64,000 nt of DNA from Escherichia coli (GTDB lineage: Bacteria; Pseudomonadota; Gammaproteobacteria; Enterobacterales; Enterobacteriaceae): the NCBI RefSeq assembly GCF_051903065.1, contig NZ_CP178438.1. One strand, 5' to 3'. The notes beneath the pieces were generated by a model. It had not been told where the DNA came from. It searched no databases and was given only the letters and a program-made list of their open reading frames with translations. Position numbers and translations under genes: made by a program. This document shows, piece after piece, positions 21,401 through 48,104 of the stretch; positions within the stretch are counted from its first letter, which is position 1, and each line of letters starts with the position of its first letter.

Positions 21401-21630
21401 TAATTGTTTACTCATTTTACTGTAATTGGCAGTAAATAGATAGACTTGGATAACTTTGAGCACAGAATCTGCACAGGTAAGTCCCCTCTCACGGAGGCCT
21501 ACCTGTGCTATATCTATATGACTGCAAAGTTACGAGTTTGACTGGAAATCTTCAATTATCTTCTGATTGTAATCATCCAGATACTTTTGCAGTTCATCCC
21601 TGTCGATCAGACGTACCAAGGCTGATTCAG

Positions 21631-22939: not shown

Positions 22940-23364
22940 GCCGCTTCACGCAATATCATTTCAGGCTGGCCCGGGAGCTTAATATTCCTCCCCAGGCAAT
23001 CGTGTATGCCAATCTACTGGCGTGGGATTACGACGGACTGACCCCTCTCAATCGCCCTCAAAATGAAGTGCAGGAAGTTATATTAGCCTCGCTGAAGCTG
23101 CTGGCGGTACAAATTAAACACCTTGAGCCTGATTTCATCATCTTTGCATCTGGAGCCCGGAGAACAGACTACATCATAAAACAGGTGCTTACTGAGCTGG
23201 GCGGCTATGAGACTTCTGCAGTCATTCCGGGGAAGCTATGGGAGTTCAAAACAGGTAATGCAATCTGTTTCAGAATTGCCCATCCAAGGGCTATGCGCGG
23301 ACACAAGAAGTACAGAGATGAGGTGATTGCACGAATTAAGCAACTTTGTACTCAGGGTGGCTAG
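22940..23364 (+). pseudogene. 3' fragment of the 57717-58457 gene (UDG-like), truncated by IS1
   Basis: 22940-23600 is near-identical to 58033-58698; translation YANLLAWDYDGLTPLNRPQNEVQEV... matches the C-terminal 141 codons of the 246-aa protein. Confidence 0.8.
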
Positions 23365-23537
23365 AGCATTACAGTTTGCTCAGCAGGCCCCCCCTTCCCG
23401 GAAGAGTACCGGAAAACAGGCAAAGCGGCCTGGTTCTCTATGCTGGAGGCGACACGTTCAATTCGGCATTGCCAGGCTGTAGATTGCAGCTCATTGCACC
23501 CCGTGAGCACAGGATATGCACAGGGCGTGAATTGCAT

Positions 23538-23938: not shown

Positions 23939-26900
23939 TTATGCCAATTCAGACTCAAACGCTGCATCATTCGCTTCAGCCTCTGCGCCATCAATTAATG
24001 CCAAGACTCGGTCAAGAAAGCGTTGCGCTTCGTATACATCTGTTGCTTGCCGCAGATAATGAGGTATTCGTTCAACAAACTCGGAACGTGATAAAGGCTG
24101 ATGTTCCAGCAAAGCCTCAAGCATTGCGGGCCGCAACAAACGACGATCAGCATCAACATTAGGAAGCTCAACCTCAATGACATGTGTGGCAAAATACTTA
24201 AGTTGCTCCTTAAGCCCCAAATTGGGCATAAGAGAATCAATTGAGTCAGACGCCACTTCAGCGCTTGACTCAATCGTTTCTACATATTCATAGGAAGGTA
24301 CAACAACGTCTGGAGCCAATGTTTTAAGCTCATGGAGTTTACGGATAATCGGAGATAGAACCTCATCAGGATTACTGAACCAATCAGTGGACCAAATGCG
24401 GCTAATTCTCCAACCCAAACGCTCCAGAACCTCTTGACGCAAACGGTCACGATCACGAGCAGATTTAGCTGAGTGATAAGCCGCACCATCACACTCTATG
24501 CCCATTAAGTAACGGCCAGGACAACCTGGATCTTTCACAGCTAGATCAATAAAGAATCCTGCAACCCCTACCTGAGGTTCACACTCAAACCCAGCGTGAT
24601 TGAGTGCTTCCATTACAGCAACCTCAAAGTCACTATCTGGAGCCCTGCCGGTATGCGTTGTGAGGGAATCTAGTTTGCCACTTTCGGCAAACTGTAAAAA
24701 ACCTTTCAACGAAATAACACCAAGTTTACTGATTTCACTCGTCAATACATCTTCAGAACGCATTGAACTAAACACATGCATCCGTTTTTTTGATCGAGTG
24801 AAAAGCACATTCAAGCGACGCCAGCCAACATCGGAATTGATAGGTCCAAAGCGTTGATAAACCTTTCCACCATGCTCAGAAGGTCCATAGGTAAAGGAAA
24901 TAAAGATTACATCACGCTCATCCCCTTGAACGTTCTCAAGGTTTTTCACAAAAAGTGGCTCTTCCATGGCATATAAGCCATCGATTGCATCGTTAAATTC
25001 AGGGCGATTTCGGCGCAATTCATCGATAGCGCGCTCAATTTGATCGCGTTGCTTGGAACTCATGGCCACTACCCCGAGTGACTCACCCGGCCGGTGTTGC
25101 GCATGATGAAGTACGGCCTCAGCAACTGCTTGGGCTTCTTCAATATTGTGTTGATTGGAGAACCGACCTTTTGACACATAGGTAAATTTAATCCCATACT
25201 CTGGAGACTCAGCATTTGGGGAAGGGAATATCACCAAATCACTGTTATAAAAATGGCGGTTAGAGTATGCAATCAACTTTTCATGTCGTGAACGATAGTG
25301 CCAACGCAAACGTCTCATAGGAAACAGTGGCAAAGCAGCATCCAAAATGCTGTCAGTATCACTTAAAGCCGCGGCATCATCGTCATCTTCTCCGTCGGCA
25401 CTTCGATCAAAGAAACTGGTTGGTGGTAGCTGTTTCGGGTCACCAACGACCACTAGTTGCTTGCCCCTCGCGATGACACCCAATGCATCCTCTGGCTTCA
25501 CCTGAGACGCTTCGTCCATCACCACCAGATCAAATTCCATTCGTCCAGGTTCTAGGTAATGAGCTGCTGACATTGGCCCCATCATGAAACAAGGTTTAAT
25601 TGCAACCAGCGCATTACATGCACGGTTAACCAATTGCCTAATTGGAATATGTCTGGTTTTTTTACCCAACTCATTTTTGATCAAAGCTAGTTCTGTATAT
25701 TCACTTTTCTTACCACCAGAATTCCCTTCTGGTATATTTCGGCAAGCAATTTTTGCTGCAATCCGCTGACGTTGTAATTCAATCAGTTTTTTATCGTAAT
25801 CTTTAAATGACTTCTGCAAAGCATTGCGCTGTGAGCCGGAAACTCTCATCAATTCAGGGTGGATGTGAATAACCTCCCGCGCCAGCTGGTCATGAATTGC
25901 TAATGCTAAACCCAATTCAACTTTTTCAATCGGGAGCGAGCCCGCAAGTACAGCACTCCAGATTCGCTGCAATCCATTTTCATGCATCTGCTCGTAACAA
26001 CGAATAAAGTTAACCCACCCGTTCAACCAACGGGGTTGCTGTATTGCTCTTTCGTTGCGCTCGATTAATGTATTAAGAGAACCATCAGTCGACTTGAGCC
26101 ACTGACTCCGCTCTAACTTTGTTTCTAGCGCATATAACTCAGCATTTTTAATCTGTTCATTCCATTTCGAAACTATTTCCCCACCATCACGACATAGTAA
26201 ATCGTAATCACTACCACTAGCCAAATGTCTGATCTGGGTAGCCAAGGATACGCAATTTATCTTATCAACCAGTTGCTCGGCAAAATTCAGCGTGTCGTTA
26301 ATAGTGTCTAACGTCAGTTGATTATTTTTATACGCACCGCAAGCCAATGGGGTTAATTGTAAAAACGCCCCTAACTGTAACGAGTCATTTTCAAGGGATA
26401 TCTGAAGATCGTTTATGTTTTGCAAAATCTCGGAGGAATGAGTCATCTGCTCTAATGATATATCTGGATTGATAAACCATCCCTGCAAGGCAATGAGAGT
26501 ATTCCGCACCTGTCGGTAAGATTGCATCAATACACCTTGCTCACCTAACCAAGATGCATGTTCTTCCAACAAGCTAGAAATACGCGGTAATAACTTAGCC
26601 TCGTGCTCGACCCGTTTAACCAAAGTCATTAATCTTGAGCTAATCTGCGATTTCTCGATTAAATGCACACCTTTGATAATCTCACCATCTAGGTTAAATA
26701 ATCCAGAGCCTATCGCAACTCGCTTTCCAAAACCTATCCCGTAACAAGCTCGGACCTTCTTGTACCAATCACGCAATAACATGAGTTGTTCACAGTCGGT
26801 GTCCAACCCTCGGAATGCATTACCAAGTTGATTACCAAAGTCACTTTGTTCAAACCGTTGTAACAGCTCCGAATACTTGAGCAAATCAGCTGAGCAGCGT

Positions 26901-29686
26901 TTTAACTCAGCAAACTTAGTGTCAGGCTTACGAGATTGCGCCATGAGCAGTGCCTTGGCACTACGCCAATCACTCTTAAACCATGCAAATAATCCCCCTT
27001 GCTGGATAACAGCAACGGCATGCGCGAGCATCTCTTGGGAAGGCAACTGGTCCAATTGATACAAAGTAGATAGACCATCTCTTAAAGGACGCAATGTTTC
27101 GATTTGACACATTAAGTCGCGCAATACTGCATCGATATCATCATCATCAAAAAGAGGATCTCGAACTCTAATAAGCTCAGTCGGTAAAGCACCCAGAATC
27201 GACAACAACTCAGAGCAGAATAGCAATCCAGCTTGCGAATCATCGATATACGAAGCAATACCATCTGGCAAAGCATTTTTGAAATCGTTTAATTGCGCAT
27301 AAATAGATGATAACTCATCATGAATTGATTGGATGGATTCAAGCCACCTGACCAAATCACGTAAAGTGAAATCCTCTGCTGCACCATATTTTTCCAGCTC
27401 TTCACGAGGAAAGTCACACGATTGTCCTTGTTCTAAAAGTCGTAGCTTTTGAGGCTCGATAACCTGGCTCAAGGCCACATAATGACCTTGTAGCAACTCG
27501 AACCTATCTAAATAGTGACGCACCCGTGCAATGGCATCGGGTGAATCTAGCTCACTAAGTGCTGGGAAATGCTCTGAACCACACAACACTGGAAGATTCG
27601 ACTGATCTTCTACCAATTGCTCAATATATTGAAGCGTATTAAGGCTTTCGCCTTCTAACGCCCACTTATCTACATATTCTTGATAGCTATGTTGAAAGTC
27701 GATAATTGATGTCTGCCAAGTTTGTAGCAAATCGACTATACGAGCGCTGTCAAACAATTGAATTTGTGTGTTATTCACACCGCTCCAAGGGTGCTCATAT
27801 ATTTCTGCATTAGCCCCCACCTGCTCACGAACCTCTTTGTAGATGCGGCTAAACTCTACTATTTGGTCACGCAGCCGTAATTGGGTCACTTTATCCAACT
27901 GCTTCCCGGAAAGGTTTTCGATATGAAGTGCTGTTGCATCAATATCTAATTTGTGACGATAACGGGTTGCACCACTCAAAATCTGATGGATCGTTTTGCC
28001 TGTTTGCGCCCATTGGTTATTGATCAATGCGGCATATTCATTGAGCTGCTGCTTAAGATCTTCATAACGCAAAATCTGAGCATCAATCTCTTCCATAGTA
28101 GGCATGGTCGCCTGACTCACCAAGCGAGCATTAATATCATCCAGCACCTTGCGCTTATGAGTTTTATGACTGTGCAACTCTAAGCAAAATTGACCTAGCC
28201 CCGCACGATCCAAGCGACGTTTGACGACCTCCAGTGCAGCCATCTTCTCTGCCACAAACAGGACTTTCTTACCGTTGAGCAGAGCTGCTGCAATCAAGTT
28301 GGTGATCGTTTGTGATTTGCCACTACCAGGAGGGCCCTCAATGACTAAGTTTTGACCACGGATAGCATCGATCAACGCACTGTGCTGCGAGCTATCCGCA
28401 TCATCGATTAGTGGAACCTTGTCATGAATATCAGGGTAACTATCGATGCAGTACTCATGCTGACCGAAGCCACCAGGTAAGCCGGAATTCTCTTGACCAC
28501 AGCTCTGACTGGTGAAAAAGCGACGAATTACTTCATGAGACAATATATTGCGCTTGTCACAAGGCCAGCGGGCAGGATCGAGGTCAAGATACATCATCAT
28601 CTTGCCAAAATTGAGCAAGCTAAGTGCACCATAACGTTTCACAGACCATTTAGGTTTGTGCTGCTCTACAACCTTCTTCACCGAAGCAAAATAAGACTCT
28701 GGAGTTTCCTCTTCATTGAACAAAGGAAGAGCGAGGCCAAAGTCAGCCTGAAGTTTTTCCTTCAAAGAGAGATTGGGCAAAATATCTTCACCCGTGTAAT
28801 AAAGTTGAAACTTGTAAAGACCATCCTTCGGATCTAATTTTCCTCGTTCACATCTCACCGGAATTGTAAATAACGGTGCATAACGTGCCTTTTCAGAGGA
28901 ATCGCTTTCATACCACTCAAGGAACCCTAACGCCAAATACAAGATGTTGGCGCCACTCTCCTCCAAAGCAGTTTGAGCCTTACCATAGATGGCGCGCAAA
29001 CAAGCTTCCAGTTCATTTGGATAAAGCAGAGCCTGTATCCGATTATCGTCATGAGAGGGATTGGAAGAAGATATACTAATCTCATTCCCAGCCTTTGCCT
29101 GTCGTTCAAAATCCTCAAGCCCTTCATAGCCTGCTAAGCAGCACGCCTCCTTCAACGCTGACAAAGCTATACCTTGATTAACGTATTCAGAACGAATCCC
29201 TGTTAATTTTCCATTCTGGCCTTGGGCATATTGCAAGATAAACTGATGGGCTTTTTCCAGCAACTCTCTATCTGAATCAGAAACAACCGTTTTATGGCTA
29301 TCTGGTAAATCAAAATCTGTACGGATTCCTAAGACGTGCGCCCAATCCTTAGCGCTAGGATGAGCTCTTAACTGTATATCTTTACCATCTGGCCCAACTT
29401 TGAGATAGCCATGCTCTAACAGCTGCGCTCTAGTTGGATCGGGCACAGGAGCAAATTCCATCGGGATTTCCGAGCAAAGGGTTTCATAAAGCTGTTCTGG
29501 TAATTCATCAACAATACGTAGTGAAGACCCTTTTTGAGTGATAGGGAAATTCAAAAGTCGATTTCGAGACGTAAGGTCCAATAACTTCTTACGCATAGCC
29601 TCGAGGGAAGTCAGAATAAAATCTGAGCCTCCTTGATTGAGTTCCTCTGCTGTAGAGGTATCTACAGTCGACATAATGTTCTCCAT
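23939..29686 (-). CDS. 1915-aa DUF4011 / SF1 (Upf1-like) helicase / Vsr-like (DUF559) endonuclease protein; resembles single-gene Hhe-type defence proteins
   Basis: N-terminus LLDLTSRNRLLNF; Walker A GPPGSGKSQT; Walker B and motif III DLVVMDEASQ...VVVGDPKQLPP; C-terminal GFFIDLAVKD...GIECDGAAYH...RDRDR. Confidence 0.75.
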   Translation of the reverse strand: MENIMSTVDTSTAEELNQGGSDFILTSLEAMRKKLLDLTSRNRLLNFPITQKGSSLRIVDELPEQLYETLCSEIPMEFAPVPDPTRAQLLEHGYLKVGPDGKDIQLRAHPSAKDWAHVLGIRTDFDLPDSHKTVVSDSDRELLEKAHQFILQYAQGQNGKLTGIRSEYVNQGIALSALKEACCLAGYEGLEDFERQAKAGNEISISSSNPSHDDNRIQALLYPNELEACLRAIYGKAQTALEESGANILYLALGFLEWYESDSSEKARYAPLFTIPVRCERGKLDPKDGLYKFQLYYTGEDILPNLSLKEKLQADFGLALPLFNEEETPESYFASVKKVVEQHKPKWSVKRYGALSLLNFGKMMMYLDLDPARWPCDKRNILSHEVIRRFFTSQSCGQENSGLPGGFGQHEYCIDSYPDIHDKVPLIDDADSSQHSALIDAIRGQNLVIEGPPGSGKSQTITNLIAAALLNGKKVLFVAEKMAALEVVKRRLDRAGLGQFCLELHSHKTHKRKVLDDINARLVSQATMPTMEEIDAQILRYEDLKQQLNEYAALINNQWAQTGKTIHQILSGATRYRHKLDIDATALHIENLSGKQLDKVTQLRLRDQIVEFSRIYKEVREQVGANAEIYEHPWSGVNNTQIQLFDSARIVDLLQTWQTSIIDFQHSYQEYVDKWALEGESLNTLQYIEQLVEDQSNLPVLCGSEHFPALSELDSPDAIARVRHYLDRFELLQGHYVALSQVIEPQKLRLLEQGQSCDFPREELEKYGAAEDFTLRDLVRWLESIQSIHDELSSIYAQLNDFKNALPDGIASYIDDSQAGLLFCSELLSILGALPTELIRVRDPLFDDDDIDAVLRDLMCQIETLRPLRDGLSTLYQLDQLPSQEMLAHAVAVIQQGGLFAWFKSDWRSAKALLMAQSRKPDTKFAELKRCSADLLKYSELLQRFEQSDFGNQLGNAFRGLDTDCEQLMLLRDWYKKVRACYGIGFGKRVAIGSGLFNLDGEIIKGVHLIEKSQISSRLMTLVKRVEHEAKLLPRISSLLEEHASWLGEQGVLMQSYRQVRNTLIALQGWFINPDISLEQMTHSSEILQNINDLQISLENDSLQLGAFLQLTPLACGAYKNNQLTLDTINDTLNFAEQLVDKINCVSLATQIRHLASGSDYDLLCRDGGEIVSKWNEQIKNAELYALETKLERSQWLKSTDGSLNTLIERNERAIQQPRWLNGWVNFIRCYEQMHENGLQRIWSAVLAGSLPIEKVELGLALAIHDQLAREVIHIHPELMRVSGSQRNALQKSFKDYDKKLIELQRQRIAAKIACRNIPEGNSGGKKSEYTELALIKNELGKKTRHIPIRQLVNRACNALVAIKPCFMMGPMSAAHYLEPGRMEFDLVVMDEASQVKPEDALGVIARGKQLVVVGDPKQLPPTSFFDRSADGEDDDDAAALSDTDSILDAALPLFPMRRLRWHYRSRHEKLIAYSNRHFYNSDLVIFPSPNAESPEYGIKFTYVSKGRFSNQHNIEEAQAVAEAVLHHAQHRPGESLGVVAMSSKQRDQIERAIDELRRNRPEFNDAIDGLYAMEEPLFVKNLENVQGDERDVIFISFTYGPSEHGGKVYQRFGPINSDVGWRRLNVLFTRSKKRMHVFSSMRSEDVLTSEISKLGVISLKGFLQFAESGKLDSLTTHTGRAPDSDFEVAVMEALNHAGFECEPQVGVAGFFIDLAVKDPGCPGRYLMGIECDGAAYHSAKSARDRDRLRQEVLERLGWRISRIWSTDWFSNPDEVLSPIIRKLHELKTLAPDVVVPSYEYVETIESSAEVASDSIDSLMPNLGLKEQLKYFATHVIEVELPNVDADRRLLRPAMLEALLEHQPLSRSEFVERIPHYLRQATDVYEAQRFLDRVLALIDGAEAEANDAAFESELA

Positions 29687-29860
29687 TTCTTAGGGTCCAC
29701 AAGTAAAACGTTTTATGCTGATGCATCACAAAAAGACCGCAGTAAACTGCTGCAAAGAAGAGGAGATTTTTAGTCTCCCCTTCTTTATCAATCAGATCAT
29801 ACAATCAACTTAACGCCCATTAGTTGATAGCAGCCAAATTTCATAAACAGATTCAATCCG

Positions 29861-31903
29861 TTATTGCTGAATTTGATTGGATAGTAAGACCTGCAACATA
29901 TCTTGTTGATGCACAGCTATCTCATCTTCCAGCCAACGACCTTTATCTTTCATCAGCCGAATCATAGCAAGCAATTTAAGACTATCAGTCTGGTTATTGG
30001 CAAGGCTTGCTTCAAAGTGCTCCTGCTTCTGTTGCGGCTGGAAGTTACTCAAGCGCGAGTTCTTGCTGTGGCTGATAAGGCAAAGGTTGCCAAACGAATG
30101 GAGTGCACTCTGCTCAACCGGTTTATAGCCATCCATCGGATGCTGGGGTGAGAAGTGCTCCACCGAGCTGCGGAAAGTGAACTCAAAGGAGCCAGCAACT
30201 TTGTCGCTATTCCGATCTCGTACCCACAGCAGATAGTCGAGGAAGTTGAAGACAAAGTTGTTCTCGATATGACCGAAGCGAAGTTTGGATGTAATCACCT
30301 TGTGCCAACTCTCATCCACATTGATGGCGGGCAACAGGGCGTTATCAAGGTAGAGCATCTGGTAATAGGAAGCCCCTTCACCAGGCGCCAAAAAGCGCTG
30401 GAAGACAAAGCGGCGAGCCTGACTCTCCAGATAGGACAGATAAGCCCCGGCATCCACCGGTTGATCAGGGTGACAATTGTCGAACAGATATCTCAGTGCA
30501 CCATTCAGCCAATGTTTGTAAACCAGGGTCGGGGTCGACACATGAAACGCCGACAGCAACATCAGGACCCGCCGGTTAACACCAGAGAAACCATTCTCAT
30601 TTTCATCCTTGTCAAAGGTATTGATGTAACTGACGCTCTTTTCCGAATACCAGTGCAGCCGCTTCAGACTCCAACTATCCTTGCCATCGGCAAACTCGCG
30701 CTTGATGATGAACTGATCAAACAGATACTTGCTCTTTAACAGGCCATAGATAAAACGCTGAACTGCCGCTACTGGATCCGGTTGCCTTATCACTCGCAGC
30801 TCAAACTGATCGACCAGTTGTTTATCATCAAGCGGCACCCCCTCCGTATCACCCGGGTCGCGGCTCACGAGTCGCAGCACATGGAGCAAGAAGTTGGAGA
30901 AGTTGATGACGCTGTTAAAGCGCTCGGAGCCTGCGCTCTCCTCCTCCACCGTCTGCTCACCATCAAGCTTGTCATCCTGCAAAATGGCCAACAAGGTGCG
31001 CCCTTGGCTACCGGCAGCTGCACGGCTTTTATCGGCAGCGTCGGCCGTGTTTGGGGATCCTAGCAGATCAAGCAGATGGGCAAAGTCACGGGGCACAAAC
31101 TGACCCCAGTCGCTCTCACCAAACAGACGGTGGCGCTCTTGCGGGGTAAAGCCGTACTGGATATAGCGCTCCATATTGGCGCAGGCATCCCATACCCGGG
31201 TCAGGATATGAATACTTTGGCGACGATGCTCTTCCTCGGGTATCTGGTTCAGCGTCTCCATCAGCCGCGCCTTGATCACTTCATGCTTTTCCAACTGCTC
31301 GCCGCGATTGTTCATCGCCTCGAAGAAGTGATTGAGATCGGTATCCTTGGGTACTTCGATACGAGAGATCTGCACATGCTTGAAGAGGTAGTCGCAAAAG
31401 GTCGTCAGTTTAGCCCCTACCAAACCAAGATCCGCCATTGCCTTGCCAATCAGCTCAAAACCGTTCACCAAACCTTCATTGAAGGTACTCCCCCGCAAAT
31501 CGTAGGGGGCAACACCCTGCCATAAGCGCTCGAAGGTATGGCTCGATATCGGGCGACTCTCAAAAGCGAGGTTGATGGTCTGATACCAGCTCATATCCAC
31601 CGAATCTATCGCGTGATGTTTGAGCCAATTGGCCAGCAGAGAGAGGGTAGTAAAGCGCTGCTGGCCATCGATTACCTCGAAACTGCCATCGTCCCGGGCA
31701 AACACCACCAGGGTGCCGATATAGTAGGTTTGCGGCCCCTTACCACTGACCAATTTTTGCTGATAATCCAGCACATCCTGCAGCAGCTGGGTGATCTCTC
31801 CCTCACCCCAGGCATAGTTGCGCTGGTACATGGGCACCAGATAGCGGGCGCGATCTTCAAGCAGTGCACGAATGGAAAAGGGGCGAACGCCTGCATCATT
31901 CAT
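29861..31903 (-). CDS. GmrSD-like protein (N-terminal DUF262, C-terminal DUF1524 His-Me finger nuclease), putative type IV restriction component
   Basis: DUF262 motifs [16 protein letters not shown] and DGQQR; DUF1524 motifs VEHFSPQHP and [17 protein letters not shown]; 8-bp overlap with the upstream gene. Confidence 0.75.
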
Positions 31904-33350
31904 AATATTTCATCTCCCGAAACAGCCCGACCAGCTCATCTTCGGCACCATTGCGATTGTTCTTGTTCTCTCGACTGCTCATGCTAGGCAAAGGGAAGCC
32001 GTGCAGATCTCCCGGCAGACGAGCATCACGAATGGCACGGATCAGATTGTGCTCCAGCACATAGTTATCCATGGTTGCCAACTGCACTACCTGCTGGCGG
32101 ATGCGGCAGCGATAGGCCCAGATAAAGCACTTCTCGATGGCCAGTGACAGCCCTTGGCTGCCGAACTTGTCGATATAGAAGATCAGGGCGCAGTCGAACA
32201 TGGCCCGCACATAACGATCCCCGGTGCGGTGGCGACGCTCGTAGCTGCCCAGGGTCGATAGCACCTTGCTGGCCATCGGTGTCAGCGTTTCGCCGAGCAG
32301 GGTGGCAGATTGCGCCTTGCCGGAATCAGACTCCTCGGCCACGATGGCGGCCACCCGCGTCTGGTAGTACTCGGCCATCTCGAAAAAGCGCCGACCATTG
32401 ATGATCATCTGGTCGAGATGAAAGGGAAACGTCATGTACTGGCCGTCAATCTTGCGCTGGTACTGGCGGTTGTACTCATCGACAAAGTGGTGGGCGATGC
32501 GCAGCGACTCCACGTAAGGATAATGCCCTACCCGATCTAGGTTGACCCCCTTGAAGAGATCCACCTCCCCCTTGCCAAAGTAGCGGGCCGACTTGCCCTC
32601 GGCCCACTGGCGTACCCGATAGAGATAGAGGGCGAACAGATTGGCCAGCTCGTCGCTTGGCAGGCGCTCCCAATGGGCGACCGCCTCGGCCTTGAGATTG
32701 GCCTCATGACCGGCAAACTCGCGCAGGTGAAATGCCTTGAGCAGATCGTGAGGAGCCAGATCGCGCCCCCGGGCATTTTGCGAATCGAAGAACTGGAACG
32801 CCTCCGAGATATCCTGCAGTACAAAGCAGACCACCTGACAGCGGTTGAGCAGAAAGTCAATTTGCTGCTCGTCAAACTCAGGGCGGGCCACCAGCCGACG
32901 CAACTCCAGATAGTTGCGTCTGAGGTTGAACTCCGAATCCCGGCTGGGGAAGCGCTGGCGCTGCATAAACGCATCGATAGGTCCACGCAAGACCTGCAAT
33001 TGCTCACGCAGATCCTGACGTTGAAACCGGATACTCTTCTCTTTGCCACTGCGATTTTCGTTATCCAGCACCTCGATCAGCGCCTTGACGGTCAACATCA
33101 GGGTCAGGGTGCGTTGCTGACCATCGACGATATCAAGCATCTCGCCCTGCTCACTATCGGTGTGCTGATGAAACACCACCGAGCCCAGCCGGTAGGCGCT
33201 CTTGTCCTGATGGGTTGCCAAATCGGTAAAGAGATCCGAGATATTCTTGGAGCCCCAGCGGTAAGGTCGCTGATAGCTTGGGATGGCCAGTTGGGGAATG
33301 GCCAGCAACTGGCGTACCGACTGCACTTGATTATTAATGCTCTCCATCAT
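31896..33350 (-). CDS. DUF262 (ParB/Srx-like NTPase) protein, GmrS-like, no recognisable nuclease domain
   Basis: Motifs [22 protein letters not shown] and DGQQRTLTL; translationally coupled to the DUF262-DUF1524 gene. Confidence 0.7.
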
Positions 33351-33371
33351 GCCTCCTGCGGTATGAAGTGG

Positions 33372-33973
<602 letters not shown>

Positions 33974-34004: not shown

Positions 34005-34760
34005 CTACATATCTGCCAACAACATCCCAGCCATACCATCCAGTCGCTTCTTAACCTTTTCCCAGCCCGGCATAACCTGCCCCATCAGACGGTAAAACTC
34101 CTCGCTGTGGTTGTGCTCAGCCACATGGCATAACTCATGTAGCAAAACATAATCGATACATTCTGAGGATGCCTTAACCAGCCATGGATTCAGGGTCAGA
34201 CAGCCTTTTGCTGAACAGTTGCCCCATTGCGTTTGCATCGCCCGCAGACGTATCGGAGGACGCTCACTGACCCAAAGGGTCTGCGGAATCAGTAAATCAA
34301 GCCTGCGCTGAAAAACATCTCTGGCACGTTCCCGATACCATTCAGCCAGCAAGGCTTTAATCTTTTCTGCCGATTTGTGTCTGACAGTCACTTCCAGACG
34401 CCCACGCAACATTTTCACTCGTTGCGGCACAGTAGCGTCTTCTGTCACTTTCAACTGATATTGCTTACCGAGATAATAATGGCTTTCTCCGCTGACATAC
34501 TGACGCGGAACAATGTGTATCTGTTGCTCCCTGAAATCACGCAGTTGCTGGTATATCCAGCGCCCACGTTTTTTCAGCGCAGACAATACCTCGTGCTCCG
34601 GTGTTTCAGGCGGTACAGAGGCCACAACCCGGCAGTCCGGATAAACCTTAATGAGCACCCTGCCCTTTACGACCTGACGCGGAACACACTGTACGACGAT
34701 GACCTCATCACCATAGACAATGCGTAACGCTTTCATTGATGGCGATTCTTTTTCACTCAT
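34005..34760 (-). CDS. DUF45/M48-family zinc metallopeptidase (YgjP-like), often linked to type I R-M loci
   Basis: 251-aa ORF with HExxH motif HELCHVAEHNH; ATGA overlap with the hsdR stop. Confidence 0.7.
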   Translation of the reverse strand: MSEKESPSMKALRIVYGDEVIVVQCVPRQVVKGRVLIKVYPDCRVVASVPPETPEHEVLSALKKRGRWIYQQLRDFREQQIHIVPRQYVSGESHYYLGKQYQLKVTEDATVPQRVKMLRGRLEVTVRHKSAEKIKALLAEWYRERARDVFQRRLDLLIPQTLWVSERPPIRLRAMQTQWGNCSAKGCLTLNPWLVKASSECIDYVLLHELCHVAEHNHSEEFYRLMGQVMPGWEKVKKRLDGMAGMLLADM

Positions 34761-37700
34761 GATTTCATCAAACCAACGCGCAGTATCTGGATGATGGTTT
34801 CCACAATACGGTTAACCTGATTCATTCCGGCACCAATTTCCCGGCAGGCCGTAAACAGCAGTGGTAGCAGACTTGTCTTAACGACTTTCTCAATGTCCTG
34901 GGGGTTCAGGGAGTTTTCTGCCACCGCTCTAACGATAATGCTGTCCACTTCAAAAGCCAGCTTCGTCCACTTATCCTGCACCTGAACGTCTTTTACCACA
35001 AAAACCTCAGGTAGCTCTTTTTTAAATACACCGTAATACGCCTGAGCATGCTTGTTTACCGCCAGTGCATCCGGGATATCGCTGAGCTTACGGGCTTCAA
35101 CCTGTTCTTCAAACTCACGGAATAAGAGGTACTGCTTAAGTGGATGGTCGAACAGTTTTTCAGCCTCTTCGATTGCCATACGCAGGAGTCTGGAAAAGGC
35201 CTCCTGAGCATACGGATCATCACGCAGCTCCTGCTCAATCATCTTCGTCACACGGGTTTTAATGATGTCGGTTTCATTGCGGGTTTTATTGTTGTCCCAC
35301 TCTTCGGGCTTTTCGCTCTTACCCATTTTACCGACTTCATACACGCCATCCGGTTCACGAACCTCAACGCCGGTGACATGCTTATCCAGCAGTTTTTTCA
35401 CCTGCTCGGCGTAGTCGTCATAATTGACCTGCTCTCCACTGACCTGCATCGCCCACTGGCGCAGGCTGGACATCTGTTTTACGGTTTCTTTATAGAGGTT
35501 TCGGTCTTGTTCCGTAAAGCTCTTGTCGGTGAAGAAGGTGGCGGACTGCAGTGCCACTTTCAGGCATCCGGCAAAGGCCGTTAACGCCTCGAAGAAATCA
35601 TCACGGGTTTTCTGATGGATATCGACCATCTCTCCGTCACGTTCTTCCATTTTAGGCACCAGTACCGCACGTAACTGCTCAGTATCATTTTTGTTTTTGA
35701 CACCAGCAAATATGGCCCACAGCTGGTTATACAGATGCGGCAGGCGCTTGTATTCAGAGCTCATGGCGCTGTACAGCCCGTCAATATCTTTGATGTCGTA
35801 TCCGCCCTGAGTTCGGGAGGCGAGGTCCTGATATTTGCCGATAGTCGTGTCCAGCTCAGCCAGAATACCGCGATAATCAATCAGCAGACCGAACTTTTTT
35901 AGTGGATGCAGTCGGTTCACCCGCGCAATCGCCTGGATAAGGTTGTGGGACTTAAGCGGCTTGTCGATATACAGCACGGTATTCTTCGGCTCATCAAACC
36001 CGGTGAGCAGTTTATCAACGACTATCAGCAATTTGAGCTTCTCATCGGTATCGAAACGACTGATGATATTGCGGGTATACACAGACTCATCCTGCGTGCC
36101 GACGTTATCTTTCCACCATTTCGTCACTTCCGGCAGTTTGCTTTCATCCACCTCAGTATTCCCTTCCCGGGTATCCGGCGGGCTGATAACTACAGCTGAC
36201 TCAAACAACCCGGCTTCATCAAGATACTTTTTATATTTGATGGCGGAAATCTTGCTGTCGCAGGCAAGCTGGCCTTTCAGCCCCTCATCAATATTCTTCG
36301 AGAAGTGCGTGGCGATATCGAGTGCGATCAGACGGATGCGATCATCTGCACTATAAACCTCACCTTTACGGGCATATTTACGCTTAAGGTCGGCTTTTTG
36401 CGCTTCGCTTAACCCATCGGTAATACGATCAAACCAGGCATCTATTGCCCGATCGTTAACCTCAAGGTCGGGAATACGTTCTTCATACAGCAAAGGTGTA
36501 ACGGCTTTATCTTCTACCGCTCGCTGCATGGTATAAGCGTGGACAATCGGTCCGAATTTATTGGTGGTCTTATCTTCTTTTAGCAATGGCGTACCAGTAA
36601 ATGCTACAAAGGCGGCGTTCGGCAGTGCCAGTTTCATTCGCACATGGTTCTCACCACCCTGGCTACGGTGTCCTTCATCAATCAGAACGATGATATCGGG
36701 GCTGGTATTGACGCATTCAGGAAGTTTTGTCGCTGAATTAAATTTCTGGATTAGGGTGAAAATGATGCGTTCTTTACCGGAGCCAATCTGTTTCGCCAGC
36801 ATCTGCCCGGATGTCGCCATTGCATTGGCTTTGTCTTTTTTCCCGGCCAACTCGCCGCCGGATGCAAAGGTACTGCTGAGCTGTTCTTCAAGATCGATAC
36901 GGTCCGTCACCACCACGATACGACACCGCTTCAGGCTGTCATGAAGGATCAGCGCCTTGCTGAGGAACACCATGGTGTACGATTTGCCAGAGCCGGTGGT
37001 ATGCCAGATAACACCACCTTCCCTGCCCCCATCGGGTCTGCGGGTACTGATGCGTTCCAGCAGTCTTTTAATCCCGAACACCTGCTGATAGCGGGCAACA
37101 ATTTTTCCGGTCTTTTTATCAAACAGGGTGAAGAAGCGGGTCATCTCCAGCAGACGTTCCGGCGAAAGCAGACTGATGAGCAGCTTATCCTGCCCGCTGA
37201 CAGCCAGTTCCCCCCCGGCGATTAACTGCTGATACCAGTTGAGATCGCCAACAGGACGATGCTCAAATAACGCATCAATTTGTTCAGTCGATAAAGGATG
37301 GTTGCGCAGGGCATACATCTGCGCATCGGTAATATCCTCTTCGCGCCATGCCGCCCAGAATTTCATTGGCGTATGGCATGTACCGTAGCGCCCGTCATGA
37401 CCGTTAATCGAAAGTAATAACTGGCTGTAGACAAACAGCTGCGGGATTTCATCGTTGAACTGGTTGCGGATACTCTGGGATATCCCCTCGTCAATGGTTG
37501 GCCCTTTCTTGCCATGACCAGCCGGGCTTTTCGCTTCAATAACAGCCAGCGGGATACCATTAACAAAGCAGACAATATCTGGCCTCCGGGTTTCAACACC
37601 ACCTGACCGCAATACCGTAAATTCTTCAGTAAAATGGAACTGGTTATTTTCCGGATGTTCCCAGTCGATCAGCGCAATGGTGGGGTTGACCTTCTTGCCA

Positions 37701-38044
37701 TCGACAAACTCCGTGACGGCGATACCGTAGAGCAGATGGTTATACATCCGCTCATTGGCTTTGAGCAGCCCTTCATTCAGCGCCGGAGAACAGACCTGTG
37801 ATATCAGGTTATCCAGTGCTTTTTCCGATAACTGGCAGGTTTTGCCACCCGCCATAAAGGAACGCTTCGACAGCTCTTCACGCAGAACCGGACGCAGCAC
37901 CACCTCATCCTGTTTATAGCCCCGGTAATCCATAATCTGTTTCGGAGATAAAAACGCCCAGCCGAGGCTGGTCAGTAACGTCAGTGCCGGAATTTTGGCG
38001 CTGTATTCTTCCTGGAATTTTGGCGTGTACGTCTGGTTCATCAT
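34757..38044 (-). CDS. hsdR: type I restriction enzyme R subunit
   Basis: 1095-aa ORF MMNQTYTPKFQEEYSAKIPALTLLTSLGWAF; helicase motifs HTTGSGKSYTMVF and VLIDEGHRSQ; operon with hsdM and hsdS. Confidence 0.9.
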   Translation of the reverse strand: MMNQTYTPKFQEEYSAKIPALTLLTSLGWAFLSPKQIMDYRGYKQDEVVLRPVLREELSKRSFMAGGKTCQLSEKALDNLISQVCSPALNEGLLKANERMYNHLLYGIAVTEFVDGKKVNPTIALIDWEHPENNQFHFTEEFTVLRSGGVETRRPDIVCFVNGIPLAVIEAKSPAGHGKKGPTIDEGISQSIRNQFNDEIPQLFVYSQLLLSINGHDGRYGTCHTPMKFWAAWREEDITDAQMYALRNHPLSTEQIDALFEHRPVGDLNWYQQLIAGGELAVSGQDKLLISLLSPERLLEMTRFFTLFDKKTGKIVARYQQVFGIKRLLERISTRRPDGGREGGVIWHTTGSGKSYTMVFLSKALILHDSLKRCRIVVVTDRIDLEEQLSSTFASGGELAGKKDKANAMATSGQMLAKQIGSGKERIIFTLIQKFNSATKLPECVNTSPDIIVLIDEGHRSQGGENHVRMKLALPNAAFVAFTGTPLLKEDKTTNKFGPIVHAYTMQRAVEDKAVTPLLYEERIPDLEVNDRAIDAWFDRITDGLSEAQKADLKRKYARKGEVYSADDRIRLIALDIATHFSKNIDEGLKGQLACDSKISAIKYKKYLDEAGLFESAVVISPPDTREGNTEVDESKLPEVTKWWKDNVGTQDESVYTRNIISRFDTDEKLKLLIVVDKLLTGFDEPKNTVLYIDKPLKSHNLIQAIARVNRLHPLKKFGLLIDYRGILAELDTTIGKYQDLASRTQGGYDIKDIDGLYSAMSSEYKRLPHLYNQLWAIFAGVKNKNDTEQLRAVLVPKMEERDGEMVDIHQKTRDDFFEALTAFAGCLKVALQSATFFTDKSFTEQDRNLYKETVKQMSSLRQWAMQVSGEQVNYDDYAEQVKKLLDKHVTGVEVREPDGVYEVGKMGKSEKPEEWDNNKTRNETDIIKTRVTKMIEQELRDDPYAQEAFSRLLRMAIEEAEKLFDHPLKQYLLFREFEEQVEARKLSDIPDALAVNKHAQAYYGVFKKELPEVFVVKDVQVQDKWTKLAFEVDSIIVRAVAENSLNPQDIEKVVKTSLLPLLFTACREIGAGMNQVNRIVETIIQILRVGLMKS

Positions 38045-38093
38045 TAATCCTTTTCTTTCTGGCGCTACTCGCTACTGGTCACATGAAGATTCA

Positions 38094-38777
38094 TCAATGC
38101 AGACAGCACCTCTTAAATTTTTTACCGCTGCCACACGGACACGGGTCATTTCGCCCGGGCATGTTTTCTGCCCCCTTCACTGGAACAGGCCGGGATGATG
38201 CCTCTGACATTCTCACTGACAACCAGTACTGATAAAGTGCCAGTGCAGCAGGCTGAATAAGGGAAATACTTTTCTCAAACTGCTCTCCGGTCATTTTCTC
38301 AAGTACAGGAAAATTCTTCTCCACGCCATGAAGAGCGATCACTTCCAGAGAAGGCCGTAACTCACCGGGAAGACCAGACCAGTCATCCAGTGACTTTCCT
38401 TTCATATAACCAAAACACCACTCTTCCACAATGGTATATTTTTCCCCCTTTACCTCACGCTCATTGAAAATCGGTTCAAACTGTTCAGGGGCCTCATACA
38501 GGCAGCCAGCGATATCGTTCATATGCTGAAAACACAGCCCCACAAAACGCGTCATCTCTTTTTCGGTGGTCCAGCGAGGGTGGTAATCACCTCGCCCCCA
38601 GATAGCACTGAGCCAGGTATTAGGGGAAATCGTATTCGGGCCAGAGACAATCGCTGTCAGAAAGCCATCCAGCTCAGAGAAACAGAGCACAGAATCATCA
38701 TTGCCGTATTTCAGCAACACCTCTTCCAGCCAGTCGATTTCCCGGTCAATCAGCGGCCCGCTTTTCGTCAGTTTCAT
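38094..38777 (-). CDS. YecA-like UPF0149 / SEC-C motif protein, paralogue of chromosomal yecA, inside the hsd operon
   Basis: 227-aa ORF MKLTKSGPLIDREIDWLEEVLLKYG... aligns along its length with YecA (20434-21099), including [11 protein letters not shown] and the terminal [21 protein letters not shown]; start overlaps hsdS stop, 49 bp before hsdR. Confidence 0.85.
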   Translation of the reverse strand: MKLTKSGPLIDREIDWLEEVLLKYGNDDSVLCFSELDGFLTAIVSGPNTISPNTWLSAIWGRGDYHPRWTTEKEMTRFVGLCFQHMNDIAGCLYEAPEQFEPIFNEREVKGEKYTIVEEWCFGYMKGKSLDDWSGLPGELRPSLEVIALHGVEKNFPVLEKMTGEQFEKSISLIQPAALALYQYWLSVRMSEASSRPVPVKGAENMPGRNDPCPCGSGKKFKRCCLH

Positions 38778-40012
38778 TCGGCAACCGCCTCATCGACCTT
38801 AACACGACGTTTGCCAGTCAGTAGCTGTTGCATCAGGGCTTTTTTCTCATCTCTCAGGCAGGCGAGTTTTTTCTCCAGCGTGGAGATTTCGGCATCGGCG
38901 ACGGACAGGACGGCGGCGATTTTTTGTTGTTCTCTTATACTGGGTAAGTCTAGTTCAAACTCTTTAACCATTCCGGCGTTTAGGTTGGACTGTGTACCTT
39001 GCTGGCCTTGTAGTTTTATTTTTTCTTTTAATGATGTAAGATAGAAATATAAAAACTCATAATTTAAACAATCTTTTGGTCTAATACCCAAGATTGCCTG
39101 CGAAGATGTTAAATTTACAGCAGCAATGCTGCATTCACCTATAGAAGCATACATAGCATAAAGAACCGAGTTTTTTGGATATATTCTTGCGGATGAACTG
39201 TTCAATCCTAATTCAGTCAGATATTTTTCAGTTGTAGCAATCCACTTTCCATTAGATGTCATATCAGAAATAGATACCCATGGGATATTCCCGCCATAAT
39301 ACTCTTCAACCGTTGATTTCGGAGTACCTCCACTGTTCATATCGGCTATCGCACCCAGTTTTACTCTCTTCCACTCCCCACTAAACCTCACCCCATTCTC
39401 ATCCAGCAAGCGTTTCTTCCCGGTAAGTAATTGCTGCATCAGGGCTTTTTTCTGCTGCTGACTATTGGCGAGCAGCTTTTCCGTCACTGAAATCGCGTTA
39501 TCCCAGGTTGACAAGATTTTGGCTATTTTCTTTTGTTCCGCCAGTGGGGGGAGTAATACAGGAAAACCGCAAACATCATCACGTGTAATATTAGGGTCTT
39601 TACGACTACTTGCCGCAAATTTCTTCCATAATTTTACATTCCCGTTTAAGTAATTCAGGATATATGCTGGTTCTGCTTTATCACGATCGAGTATAAGACC
39701 GGATAATGCTTGGTTTATTGCTGCCGGTATAGTGAGAAGTCCAGTTCTTCCGATCTGGTTAAAGCCTCCATACATCGCTACTAAAACAGTACCAACAGGA
39801 AATACAGAGCAAGATGTTTCTAAAAGGGCTGTGTCAGTAATTTTCTCATCAGTTGAGATAATTTCACCGTTATTTAGGTCTAATGTCTTTACCCATGGAG
39901 TACCAGCAGTAGAAAAATAACGCTCTCCCTCAGCCCTCAGCGGAGTAGATCCAGATTTAATTTTTGCTATGTCCGATAATTTGACATGTCTCCAGCCAGG
40001 TTTGAGCTTCAT
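38774..40012 (-). CDS. hsdS: type I restriction-modification specificity subunit
   Basis: 412-aa ORF with two target-recognition halves and conserved HsdS core LLTGK(K/R)RL; overlaps hsdM stop. Confidence 0.88.
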   Translation of the reverse strand: MKLKPGWRHVKLSDIAKIKSGSTPLRAEGERYFSTAGTPWVKTLDLNNGEIISTDEKITDTALLETSCSVFPVGTVLVAMYGGFNQIGRTGLLTIPAAINQALSGLILDRDKAEPAYILNYLNGNVKLWKKFAASSRKDPNITRDDVCGFPVLLPPLAEQKKIAKILSTWDNAISVTEKLLANSQQQKKALMQQLLTGKKRLLDENGVRFSGEWKRVKLGAIADMNSGGTPKSTVEEYYGGNIPWVSISDMTSNGKWIATTEKYLTELGLNSSSARIYPKNSVLYAMYASIGECSIAAVNLTSSQAILGIRPKDCLNYEFLYFYLTSLKEKIKLQGQQGTQSNLNAGMVKEFELDLPSIREQQKIAAVLSVADAEISTLEKKLACLRDEKKALMQQLLTGKRRVKVDEAVAE

Positions 40013-41565
40013 AAGCTATCCTCTTGCATACTGAAGTTTTCTCTTTCACCATAACCCAACTCCTTCAGATAACCCGCCATCTCTGTTTCGAGTTTTGACA
40101 GTTCCACTTTCAATTGCTCACGTTCGGCACGCACAGCCAGCAAGTCAATCTCGTCTTCTTCCTCAAAGGTATCGACATAGCGCGGAATATTGAGGTTGTA
40201 ATCGTTGTCCTGAATTTCCTTCAGGCTGGCGAGATAGGCGTATTTCTCGACGTTATCGCCATCACGGTAGGTCTTGACGATTTTCTTAATGTTTTCTTCG
40301 CTAAGCTGGTTCTGGTTTTTACCTGCCTTGAATTCACGGCTGGCATCGATAAACAGCACCTTATCATCAACTTTCTGCTTTTTGAAAATCAGAATCGCAG
40401 CCGGAATCCCCGTACCGTAGAACAGTTTTTCCGGCAGACCAATTACCGCATCCAGCAAATTTTCGTCGATCAGTTTCTGGCGAATTTTACCTTCGCTGGA
40501 GCCACGGAAAAGCACACCGTGTGGCACAACTACGCCCATACGGCCAGTTCCCGGTTTCAGGGTTTCGATCATATGCGAGATAAAAGCGTAATCTCCTTTA
40601 GTCTTCGGCGGTACACCGCGACGAAAACGGCCAAACTTATCGTTCTCAGCCTCGTCATGGCCCCACTTATCCAGGCTGAACGGTGGGTTAGCGGTCACGA
40701 TATCAAACAGCATCAGGTCGCCATTTTTATCGAGCAGTTTCGGGTTACGAATGGTATCGCCCCACTCGATTTTATGGTTGTCTTCGCCGTGCAGGAACAT
40801 GTTCATTTTCGCCAGCGACCACGTGGAGCCAATCGCTTCCTGACCAAACAACGCATAATTACGGCTGTTATGTCCGGAGACAATTTTACGTCCGCACTTC
40901 ATCAATAACGAACCAGAGCCGCAGGCCGGATCGCAGATGGTATCACCCGGTTGCGGATCAAGCAGTTCAGCAATCAGGTCTGAAACTTCTGGTGGGGTAT
41001 AGAATTCCCCGGCTTTCTGCCCACCGCTGGCGGCAAAGTTTTTGATCAGATATTCGTAGGCATTACCGATAACGTCCAGCGTACCTACACGGCTTGGCTT
41101 CAGGTTGAGATCTTCACCGGCGAAGTCTTCCAGCAACTGACGCAGGATGGTGTTCTTCTGTTTTTCTTCACCCAAGCGGTCAGTGTTAAACGAAATATCC
41201 TGGAACACGCTTTTCCCGGCATCTTTCAGTTTGGTTCCGTTGGCTTCTTCGATTGCATGCAGAGCCTGATCGATACGCTCACCGTTACCCGGCTCATGGC
41301 GGCGTTCGTACAGCGCATAAAAGCTGGCACTTTTTGGCAGTACAAAACGCTCGTTGGCCATCATCGCTTCAATCAGTTCCGGCGCATCGCCATACTGTTC
41401 TTTGTATTCGTCATAGTGATCCTGCCAGACATCTGAAATGTACTTGAGGAACAGCATGGTAAGGATAAAGTCTTTATAGGTATCAGCACTGATGGTGCCA
41501 CGGAACGTATCACACGCGGCCCACAGGGCTTTGTTGATCGTGTCCTGACTGATTTTGTCGTTCAT
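40009..41565 (-). CDS. hsdM: type I restriction-modification DNA methyltransferase subunit (N6-adenine)
   Basis: 518-aa ORF MNDKISQDTINKALWAACDTFRG; motif I DPACGSGSLL; motif IV NPPF in TANPPFSLDKWG. Confidence 0.92.
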   Translation of the reverse strand: MNDKISQDTINKALWAACDTFRGTISADTYKDFILTMLFLKYISDVWQDHYDEYKEQYGDAPELIEAMMANERFVLPKSASFYALYERRHEPGNGERIDQALHAIEEANGTKLKDAGKSVFQDISFNTDRLGEEKQKNTILRQLLEDFAGEDLNLKPSRVGTLDVIGNAYEYLIKNFAASGGQKAGEFYTPPEVSDLIAELLDPQPGDTICDPACGSGSLLMKCGRKIVSGHNSRNYALFGQEAIGSTWSLAKMNMFLHGEDNHKIEWGDTIRNPKLLDKNGDLMLFDIVTANPPFSLDKWGHDEAENDKFGRFRRGVPPKTKGDYAFISHMIETLKPGTGRMGVVVPHGVLFRGSSEGKIRQKLIDENLLDAVIGLPEKLFYGTGIPAAILIFKKQKVDDKVLFIDASREFKAGKNQNQLSEENIKKIVKTYRDGDNVEKYAYLASLKEIQDNDYNLNIPRYVDTFEEEDEIDLLAVRAEREQLKVELSKLETEMAGYLKELGYGERENFSMQEDSL

Positions 41566-48094: not shown

Positions 48095-48104
48095 GGAGTT
48101 AACT

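Follow-up and report, generated by a model that had tools for sequence, protein, structure and literature searches.

The GmrS1/GmrSD2 (TgvAB-family) type IV restriction enzyme of Escherichia coli and the insertion-sequence scar upstream of its genes

Two-gene, GmrSD-like restriction systems composed of a pair of DUF262 proteins have been described in Vibrio cholerae and in Escherichia coli. In TgvAB, encoded in VPI-2 of V. cholerae (VC1767/VC1766; PMC11411939, bioRxiv 10.1101/2024.04.05.588314), defence is abolished by mutations of the DGQQR motif in either protein, as well as by the substitutions H571A/N602A in TgvB (PMC11411939). In a survey of its homologues stand-alone hits outnumbered those embedded in type I restriction-modification (RM) systems by 1,341 to 79, and embedding is thus not required (PMC11411939). 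In GrwAB, found in WASA-lineage V. cholerae, both DUF262 proteins are likewise necessary (PMC12137116). The system of E. coli strain ECOR17 (GmrSD-ECOR17, clusters CLS_003/CLS_004) also depends on both genes, and GmrSD2 gives no defence when over-expressed alone, while the E582A/H583A mutant of GmrSD2 is dead, which makes the His-Me/HNH site necessary. It blocks T2, T6 and T4 lacking ip3, its activity being limited to glucosyl-hydroxymethylcytosine (glucosyl-hmC) T-even DNA, T4 counters it with the injected protein Ip3, an inhibitor of the system, and its over-expression is very toxic (PMC12373910).

The window analysed here, a stretch of 64,000 nucleotides from E. coli (contig NZ_CP178438.1), contains the gene pair of the GmrS1/GmrSD2 (TgvAB-family) system known from E. 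coli, a two-protein type IV restriction enzyme that has already been published. GmrS1 is identical to ECOR17 APT18_07330 in 482 of 483 residues and GmrSD2 to APT18_07335 in 678 of 680 (Supplementary Data 5, PMC12373910); the window has R294 instead of S in GmrS1, and T168 instead of A and R348 instead of C in GmrSD2. The agreement extends to the protein lengths (483/680 aa), to the active site, as residues 582-583 of GmrSD2 are EH, exactly the positions mutated in PMC12373910, and to the antisense open reading frames (ORFs) described there, which correspond to ORFs on the plus strand whose ends lie 84 and 244 bp upstream of the gmrSD2 start. The same neighbour, Hhe, is found in lineages encoding a GmrSD2 identical to that of ECOR17. 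From this near-identity the window allele (R294; T168, R348) is predicted to be active against glucosyl-hmC phages. The initial annotation regarded the pair as a type IV module of a GmrS-like and a GmrSD-like protein, in which an extra DUF262 partner may act together with the nuclease, and the published tests on proteins 99.7-99.8% identical to those of the window bear this out (PMC12373910). Since the cloning and phage challenge which it proposed are already in print, we claim no novelty for the enzyme itself.

Table 1. Features of the gmrS1/gmrSD2 locus and its surroundings (positions in the window)
Feature	Position	Strand	Remarks
hhe	23939-29686	-	DUF4011 / SF1 helicase / Vsr-like nuclease; anti-phage
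spacer gmrSD2-hhe	29687-29860	-	AT-rich, GC 0.38
gmrSD2 (tgvB-like)	29861-31903	-	ORF, 680 aa; DUF262 NTPase/sensor and C-terminal DUF1524 His-Me (HNH) nuclease
gmrS1 (tgvA-like)	31896-33350	-	ORF, 484 aa; probable start ATG 33347 (483 aa); no nuclease domain
native leader	33351-33363	-	TACCGCAGGAGGC; 13 nt, sole native remainder; contains Shine-Dalgarno AGGAGG
IS911 (IS3 family) 3' fragment	33364-33597	-	C-terminal end of orfB and right inverted repeat (33364-33399)
IS1 5' fragment	33598-33973	-	left inverted repeat and intact insA; co-oriented with gmrS1
insA	33918-33643	-	intact, 91 aa, within IS1 fragment
promoter-like site in IS1 left inverted repeat	33966-33939	-	promoter scan
type I RM operon (context)	34005-41565	-	Pfam, RefSeq; possible read-through source
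YgjP-like M48 peptidase	34005-34760	-	Pfam/RefSeq
hsdR	34757-38044	-	Pfam/RefSeq
YecA-like/SEC-C gene	38094-38777	-	Pfam/RefSeq
hsdS	38774-40012	-	Pfam/RefSeq
hsdM	40009-41565	-	Pfam/RefSeq

Both ORFs reported earlier (484 and 680 aa) are present and share 8 bp (31896-31903, ATGAATGA), so that the start of gmrSD2 overlaps the stop of gmrS1; this ATGAxTGA overlap is kept in four other genera, and in relatives at 56-90% identity the two genes invariably occur together and overlap by the same 8 bp. For gmrS1 the second ATG is the likelier start, because its spacing from AGGAGG fits and because it is used both by RefSeq and in the published ECOR17 sequence. The upstream protein had been described as "DUF262-only", which is incorrect: besides GmrSD_N/DUF262 (Pfam, 2.1e-28) it has a second domain, DUF7834 (1.3e-76, residues 220-465), common to TgvA. 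GmrSD2 matches GmrSD_N (1.8e-29) and GmrSD_C/DUF1524 (1.5e-11). GmrS1 carries YQR25, DGQQR75-79 and FFDSQN186-191 in a ParB-like NTPase domain, with DGQQR, YQR and FxxxN invariant in 40 homologues, and GmrSD2 carries YQR26, DGQQR79 and FFEAMN193, together with the His-Me motif VEH583...N606...N615, in which H583, N606 and N615 are invariant across five homologues. An AF2 model of GmrS1 built from a 40-sequence alignment reached a mean pLDDT of 69.6, with residues 238-328 below 50, and a Foldseek search of the PDB with it returned DndI only, at a TM of about 0.3. The idea that DUF7834 is a copy of the central region of GmrSD2 found no support, since hhalign of the two families aligned the DUF262 domains only; the GmrSD2 profile was shallow in this comparison (5 sequences), and the middle of GmrSD2 remained without a match.

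The pair shares with TgvAB the order and architecture of the genes (DUF262+DUF7834 followed by DUF262+DUF1524, adjacent and co-oriented), the DGQQR motif in both proteins and the His-Me nuclease in the second, as well as, judging from the ECOR17 allele, the need for both genes and the glucosyl-hmC target. However, the E. coli proteins are only 23-25% identical to those of V. cholerae. In a comparison with the N-terminal ~400 aa of each Vibrio protein (Table S5, PMC11411939), residues 20-419 of GmrS1 aligned with TgvA at 25% identity over about 400 aa (E 1e-21, 83 bits) and residues 9-399 of GmrSD2 with TgvB at 23.5% (E 8e-21, 81 bits), while the cross-pairs, GmrS1 with TgvB and GmrSD2 with TgvA, were confined to DUF262 and scored 60 bits each. 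V. cholerae TgvA (residues 1-399) contains GmrSD_N and DUF7834 (3.4e-38); it was not among the best 120 matches when the V. parahaemolyticus protein served as the query for homologues. A near-identical pair from E. coli FORC31 is hit 101 in the MacSyFinder table of TgvAB homologues (Table S5, PMC11411939). The setting differs too: TgvAB is embedded between hsdS and hsdR, an arrangement also present in the closer relative from V. parahaemolyticus (64%/56% identity), whereas the E. coli pair follows hsdR and the M48 peptidase gene, with the IS1/IS911 scar between. In GrwAB the gene order is reversed, with the nuclease-bearing protein first, the C-terminal domains of GrwB are, according to its authors, unlike those of TgvA, and 7-deazaguanine DNA is also targeted (PMC12137116).

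PADLOC has no specific model for the pair and gave partial N-terminal matches only, to HEC-06, Orf5 and SspE, NCBIfam returned no match, and a sequence search of the PDB revealed weak similarity only, to SspE, DndI and unnamed DUF262 proteins, limited to ~100 residues at the N-terminus; the same proteins are also the best solved-structure matches of GmrSD2. In its two-domain plan and its motifs GmrSD2 agrees with the single-chain enzymes GmrSD, BrxU, SspE and DndI, which are type IV or PT-sensing DUF262-DUF1524 nucleases, but these work as one polypeptide, whereas here a second DUF262 protein is needed (ECOR17 allele). GmrSD2 of ECOR17 is reported to be inactive by itself, and therefore we do not place the pair in the single-chain GmrSD/BrxU/SspE family.

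That single-chain architecture, found in full in GmrSD2, together with the strong toxicity of the system, could suggest that GmrSD2 is the complete enzyme and that GmrS1 is a non-catalytic regulator, chaperone or anti-anti-restriction decoy, for instance a DUF262 look-alike that limits toxicity or catches phage inhibitors such as internal proteins. We regard this as unlikely, considering the failure of over-expressed GmrSD2 to protect by itself and the invariance of the three motifs in the GmrS1 homologues; moreover, TgvAB defence is lost when only TgvA has a mutated DGQQR (NTPase) motif, and therefore the partner's own activity is needed. We rather infer that GmrS1 and GmrSD2 form a hetero-oligomer, in which the ParB-like DUF262 NTPase domains of both proteins, with their DGQQR motifs, would recognise modified DNA and control the one DUF1524 nuclease, that of GmrSD2. 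The conserved overlap of the genes may couple their translation and thereby set the stoichiometry. Taken as a whole, an enzyme against glucosyl-hmC DNA, acting as a probable hetero-oligomer and transcribed from a point farther upstream, is the explanation in which we have high confidence.

The region upstream of gmrS1 had been described as displaced by an IS3-family fragment and a truncated IS1, and this can now be delimited to the base (Table 1). Nucleotide homology to the Vogesella locus begins exactly at 33363, the last base of the native leader, next to which lies the right end of IS911, 13 nt upstream of the first gmrS1 ATG and fused to the IS1 5' fragment on its other side. The IS911 right inverted repeat is identical to the published IRR oligo IRRa at 35/36 positions (PMC2909936); RefSeq labels the fragment as an 'integrase core domain' pseudogene. 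The IS1 fragment is 99.5% identical to a complete IS1 at 22172-22547. Alignment of the window with another locus (L002), in which the IS911 at this insertion site is complete, shows that the IS1/IS911 fusion corresponds to a 1,186-bp deletion at a GCGyGGAAA microhomology. The fusion junction occurs in at least 170 genomes, and the junction of IS911 with gmrS1 is identical in all of the ~254 complete E. coli genomes with an intact pair. The insertion of IS911 in E. coli, 13 nt before the start codon, took away the native promoter, and the scar in the window is a later IS1/IS911 deletion derivative. We found no support for a composite transposon in which inverted copies of IS1 (22172, 33973) carry hhe and the pair, because the flanking 9-mers differ (CATGACTTC vs GACAAATGA).

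Having lost its promoter, the pair in the window might be a transcriptionally silent, decaying remnant. The shortness of the native leader would agree with this, as would the truncated copies present in about 8% of the E. coli genomes with the locus. No usable promoter adjoining gmrS1 was found in a promoter scan, which performed at chance level (6 sites found vs 4.4 expected). The sole adjacent promoter-like match is TTGACC-18-CATGAT, a would-be hybrid with the -35 hexamer TTGACC provided by the IS911 right inverted repeat; we rejected it because its -10 element overlaps the start codons, so that transcription would begin inside gmrS1. On the other hand, neither ORF is disrupted, every motif is kept and identity is at least 99% among the ~254 scar-bearing genomes, and a transposon insertion in gmrSD2 deprives native ECOR17 of its resistance. 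ECOR17 itself appears to share the IS911 junction, judging from lineages that encode its exact GmrSD2. Furthermore, the co-oriented insA promoter and operon lie upstream, and no terminator-like sites were found on the minus strand from 34760 to 33350. We therefore consider a silent pair improbable.

With no usable promoter next to gmrS1, transcription would have to enter from upstream, for which the sequence offers two candidate routes. The first would be the weak, InsA-repressed promoter of insA in the IS1 left inverted repeat, the second read-through of the co-oriented hsdM-hsdS-hsdR-M48 operon; the dependence on IS-derived promoters proposed in the initial annotation is thus one of two possibilities. 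Either route would result in low expression, tolerable for a toxic enzyme. Neither the native promoter nor the DNA upstream of it was used in the published constructs (PMC12373910). The lineages with the exact GmrSD2 of ECOR17 appear to have a complete IS911 upstream and not the deletion seen in the window, hence native expression is known only for another variant of the scar. It is a tentative possibility that in E. coli the scar is not damage, but a fixed, working control region that keeps a toxic enzyme low. If this occurred via the autorepressed left-end promoter of IS1, expression of the defence would be tied to the IS1 load of the cell; if via read-through, the pair would be appended to the type I RM operon, as in the 'type I-embedded' co-expression in Vibrio.

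Downstream of the pair lies a co-oriented helicase-nuclease gene, which had been considered either an independent system or a third component. It can now be identified as Hhe, a known single-gene system: the PADLOC match is full-length (1-1911 of 1911, 4302.8 bits), and with the NCBIfam equivalog NF042953 the score is 2735.9 bits, above the cut-off of 2000. A three-component system would accord with the orientation of the genes, separated by 174 bp (or 186 bp when the RefSeq start, 29674, is taken), and with the almost complete overlap, in E. coli, between the genomes that have this hhe allele and those that have the pair (274 vs 275). However, this co-occurrence is explained by the inheritance of a single block at least 99% identical, and a two-gene construct suffices for activity. 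Hhe has been validated on its own: it acts against lambda, T3 and T7, but not against T4, regardless of how the T4 DNA is modified. Its gene differs from the pair in GC content (0.443 vs 0.54), nucleotide homology to relatives stops at the gmrSD2 stop codon, and Hhe is absent beside the pair in Vogesella, Shewanella, Enterobacter and Vibrio. In the spacer, at 29737-29778, each strand has weak hairpins that resemble terminators. We consider a three-component system very improbable; Hhe is a separate single-gene system that handles unmodified phages.

Among complete E. coli genomes about 5% have the pair, and in each of them it sits in the yecA-leuZ island, preceded by the shared IS911 insertion and with Hhe and a type I RM operon as neighbours. 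What is new in the present analysis is the IS911-gmrS1 junction in all of the ~254 complete E. coli genomes with an intact pair, the IS1/IS911 fusion and the lack of an adjacent usable promoter; the remainder of the biology, including the Ip3 target and the two-protein, GmrSD-like nature of the enzyme, was already published, and we add only its context. In that context, the pair, Hhe and the type I RM system represent defences against modified and unmodified phages stacked at one island. GmrS1/GmrSD2, the long-sought target of Ip3, is one front of the arms race between T4 and E. coli, and it exemplifies the emerging two-protein GmrSD-like restriction enzymes.

The two overlapping minus-strand ORFs described in the initial annotation were confirmed (484 and 680 aa, sharing 8 bp, ATGAATGA) in a window that is 100% identical to the E. 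coli chromosome NZ_AP045789. They are the GmrS1/GmrSD2 system of E. coli ECOR17 (Nat Commun 2025, PMC12373910), since the window proteins differ from the reference proteins APT18_07330 and APT18_07335, taken from Supplementary Data 5 of that paper, at only 1/483 (GmrS1) and 2/680 (GmrSD2) positions. Residues 582-583 of the window GmrSD2 are EH, matching the E582/H583 replaced in the nuclease-dead ECOR17 mutant E582A/H583A, and plus-strand ORFs with ends at 31987 and 32147 are the two antisense ORFs described as extending 84 and 244 bp upstream of the gmrSD2 start (PMC12373910). For gmrS1 the second ATG (33347, 483 aa) is a better start than the first, because the AGGAGG spacing fits and both RefSeq and the published sequence use it.

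Positions in the window of the gene pair, the upstream IS scar and the surrounding island, listed in the minus-strand direction
Feature	Coordinates	Strand	Remarks
leuZ-cysT-glyW tRNA genes	58697-58998		island border
Defence island	~21100-58700		~37 kb
Site-specific integrase	56435-57634		adjoins tRNA-Leu
Neighbour of the polymerase-like gene	50753-51079		
Family-B DNA polymerase-like	48104-50704	+	866 aa
Neighbour of the polymerase-like gene	47545-48057		
Second tyrosine recombinase	44885-46021		
Hypothetical gene	43611-44741	+	
Hypothetical gene	41872-43104	+	
YecA-like gene	38094-38777	-	UPF0149 + SEC-C motif, 227 aa
YgjP-like/M48 metallopeptidase	34005-34760	-	SprT/WLM-like; stop codon at 34005
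Spacer		-	31 nt
IS1 fragment	33598-33973	-	left inverted repeat at 33973
insA, intact	33918-33643	-	
IS911, last 234 bp	33597-33364	-	
TACCGCAGGAGGC		-	13 nt, then gmrS1 ATG
gmrS1	31896-33350	-	
gmrSD2	29861-31903	-	
hhe	23939-29686	-	1,915 aa
Hypothetical-protein fragment	22943-23365	+	
IS1, complete	22172-22939		
Restriction-endonuclease pseudogene	21530-22177	-	
yecA	20434-21099		island border

Both proteins contain the GmrSD_N/DUF262 domain (Pfam, 2.1e-28 in GmrS1 and 1.8e-29 in GmrSD2) with YQR, DGQQR and FxxxN motifs, and GmrSD2 adds GmrSD_C/DUF1524 (1.5e-11) with the His-Me motif VEH583...N606...N615. GmrS1 also holds DUF7834 (1.3e-76, residues 220-465), and therefore is not the 'DUF262-only' protein it had been called. 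In a profile comparison between the two proteins DUF262 alone aligned. The AF2 model of GmrS1 is poor over residues 238-328, and its best structural match is DndI, with a TM of about 0.3.

The system is already known: its classification dates from 2024 and its experimental characterisation from 2025. When the ECOR17 pair is leakily expressed, T2, T6 and T4 without ip2 and ip3 are blocked; restriction is limited to glucosyl-hmC T4, with hmC and C phage not restricted, T4 Ip3 is a specific inhibitor, neither gene alone protects even when over-expressed, and induction of both is grossly toxic (PMC12373910). The cloning and phage challenge suggested earlier have therefore already been carried out, and the type IV restriction proposed for the pair is borne out, as is, essentially, the overall interpretation. 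Both proteins, the NTPase motifs of both and the single nuclease are needed for defence (PMC12373910, PMC11411939). GmrS1 and GmrSD2 would form a heteromer whose two DUF262 sensor/NTPase domains may gate its one His-Me nuclease, and the conserved gene overlap may serve translational coupling.

On sequence grounds, the pair belongs to the TgvAB family, as a genuine though distant member. In V. cholerae both tgv genes are required, defence against the target, glucosylated hmC, is abolished by DGQQR mutants of either protein and by TgvB H571A/N602A, and hit 101 in Table S5 of the same study, E. coli FORC31 AOT32537/AOT32538 (PMC11411939), has the same sequences as the window pair. The assignment follows from this listing, from DUF7834, which is present in V. 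cholerae TgvA (3.4e-38) as in GmrS1, and from partner-to-partner alignments with the Table S5 sequences of about 400 aa each: GmrS1 matches TgvA across residues 20-419 (25%, E 1e-21) and GmrSD2 matches TgvB across residues 9-399 (23.5%, E 8e-21), while alignments of non-matching partners are confined to DUF262. Closer relatives keep the arrangement and the 8-bp overlap; with identities given as GmrS1/GmrSD2 homologue, they are stand-alone in Vogesella (90%/86%, adjoining a type I-E Cas locus), Shewanella (86%/84%) and Enterobacter (78-80%/76%), and embedded as hsdM-hsdS-A-B-hsdR-YgjP in V. parahaemolyticus (64%/56%). Neither PADLOC nor NCBIfam has a specific model for the pair, and a PDB sequence search found no solved structure of a close relative.

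The downstream gene matches the PADLOC model of Hhe along its entire length and scores above the NCBIfam equivalog cut-off, which identifies it as Hhe, a single-gene system reported to act on lambda, T3, T7 and PhiV-1 and to leave T4 unrestricted irrespective of how its DNA is modified (bioRxiv 10.1101/2022.06.16.496414). It had been regarded as either an independent system or a third component. Within E. coli, the window hhe allele (274 genomes) and the pair (275) are distributed almost identically, because one block, at least 99% identical, has been inherited. The third-component reading is rejected and the independent one upheld, since GC differs (0.443 in hhe, 0.54 in the pair, 0.38 in the spacer), Hhe is absent beside the relatives in Vogesella, Shewanella, Enterobacter and Vibrio, and a two-gene construct without hhe suffices for defence (PMC12373910). 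Hhe and the pair look like complementary systems that are not joined. The complete IS1 and the IS1 fragment bracket them in inverted orientation, left ends outward; a composite transposon was considered, but the 9-mers on either side are not the same and give no evidence of block transposition. The complete IS1 lies between a restriction-endonuclease pseudogene and a hypothetical-protein fragment, and the region from yecA to hhe is older island content further eroded by IS activity.

Elsewhere in the island, the YecA-like gene, a paralogue of the bordering chromosomal yecA, sits within the type I RM operon, where it separates hsdS from hsdR, in the slot of tgvAB-like pairs in Vibrio. It is missing from the otherwise similar operon of strain PD7, present in the plasmid copy of strain ET896, and a candidate for an 'embedded' gene with an accessory or defence role. 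The YgjP-like gene overlaps the hsdR stop by 4 bp and a YgjP-like gene likewise follows hsdR in V. parahaemolyticus (14509-15225 of that locus), which suggests a conserved accessory of this type I RM lineage. Two genes without functional annotation, in a stretch of GC 0.34-0.37, lie directly upstream of and divergent from hsdM, and the polymerase-like gene neighbours small hypothetical genes, an HTH regulator and a DUF726 protein.

Replacement of the upstream region by IS remnants was confirmed, the remnants being fragments of IS1 and IS911, the latter with a right inverted repeat matching the published IRR oligo at 35/36 positions. Nucleotide homology with the Vogesella locus (85%) stops at 29889 and starts exactly at 33363, so the native upstream region has been lost right up to the ribosome-binding site. 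In a lineage with the ECOR17-identical GmrSD2, a complete IS911 occupies the same insertion point, behind about 540 bp of IS1; the window differs from this arrangement by a 1,186-bp deletion between GCGCGGAAA (IS1) and GCGTGGAAA (IS911). The IS911-gmrS1 junction is found in 254 complete E. coli genomes, i.e. every genome with an intact pair, and the window-type IS1-IS911 junction in at least 170; PD7 and the ET896 plasmid have further deletion variants. Truncated copies of the pair occur in about 8% of E. coli genomes with the locus, so some lineages are losing the module. In several of these genomes all that is left is the final 1,336 bp of gmrSD2, annotated 'HNH endonuclease family protein', and one plasmid-borne, frameshifted copy is disrupted by a Tn3-family element.

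The only promoter-like site adjoining gmrS1, TTGACC-18-CATGAT with its -35 hexamer from the IS911 IRR, was rejected, as its -10 overlaps the start codons and so cannot serve gmrS1; the scan overall was at chance level (6 sites observed, 4.4 expected). Transcription probably follows one of two routes. The IS-derived promoters initially proposed retain a candidate in the IS1 left-end site at 33966-33939; InsA represses the insA promoter of IS1, which sits in the left inverted repeat. The other route is read-through from the tightly packed, co-oriented hsdM-hsdS-yecA-like-hsdR-M48 operon; a sequence scan found no terminator-like site between it and gmrS1. The constructs in the published work were not driven by the native promoter (PMC12373910). 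At high phage input, native ECOR17 with a transposon in the 2,043-bp DUF262 gene becomes sensitive to T4 without ip2 and ip3, so at least one scar variant does allow expression in its native context. What this locus adds to the known system is contextual, namely the fixed IS911 insertion and the microhomology deletion.
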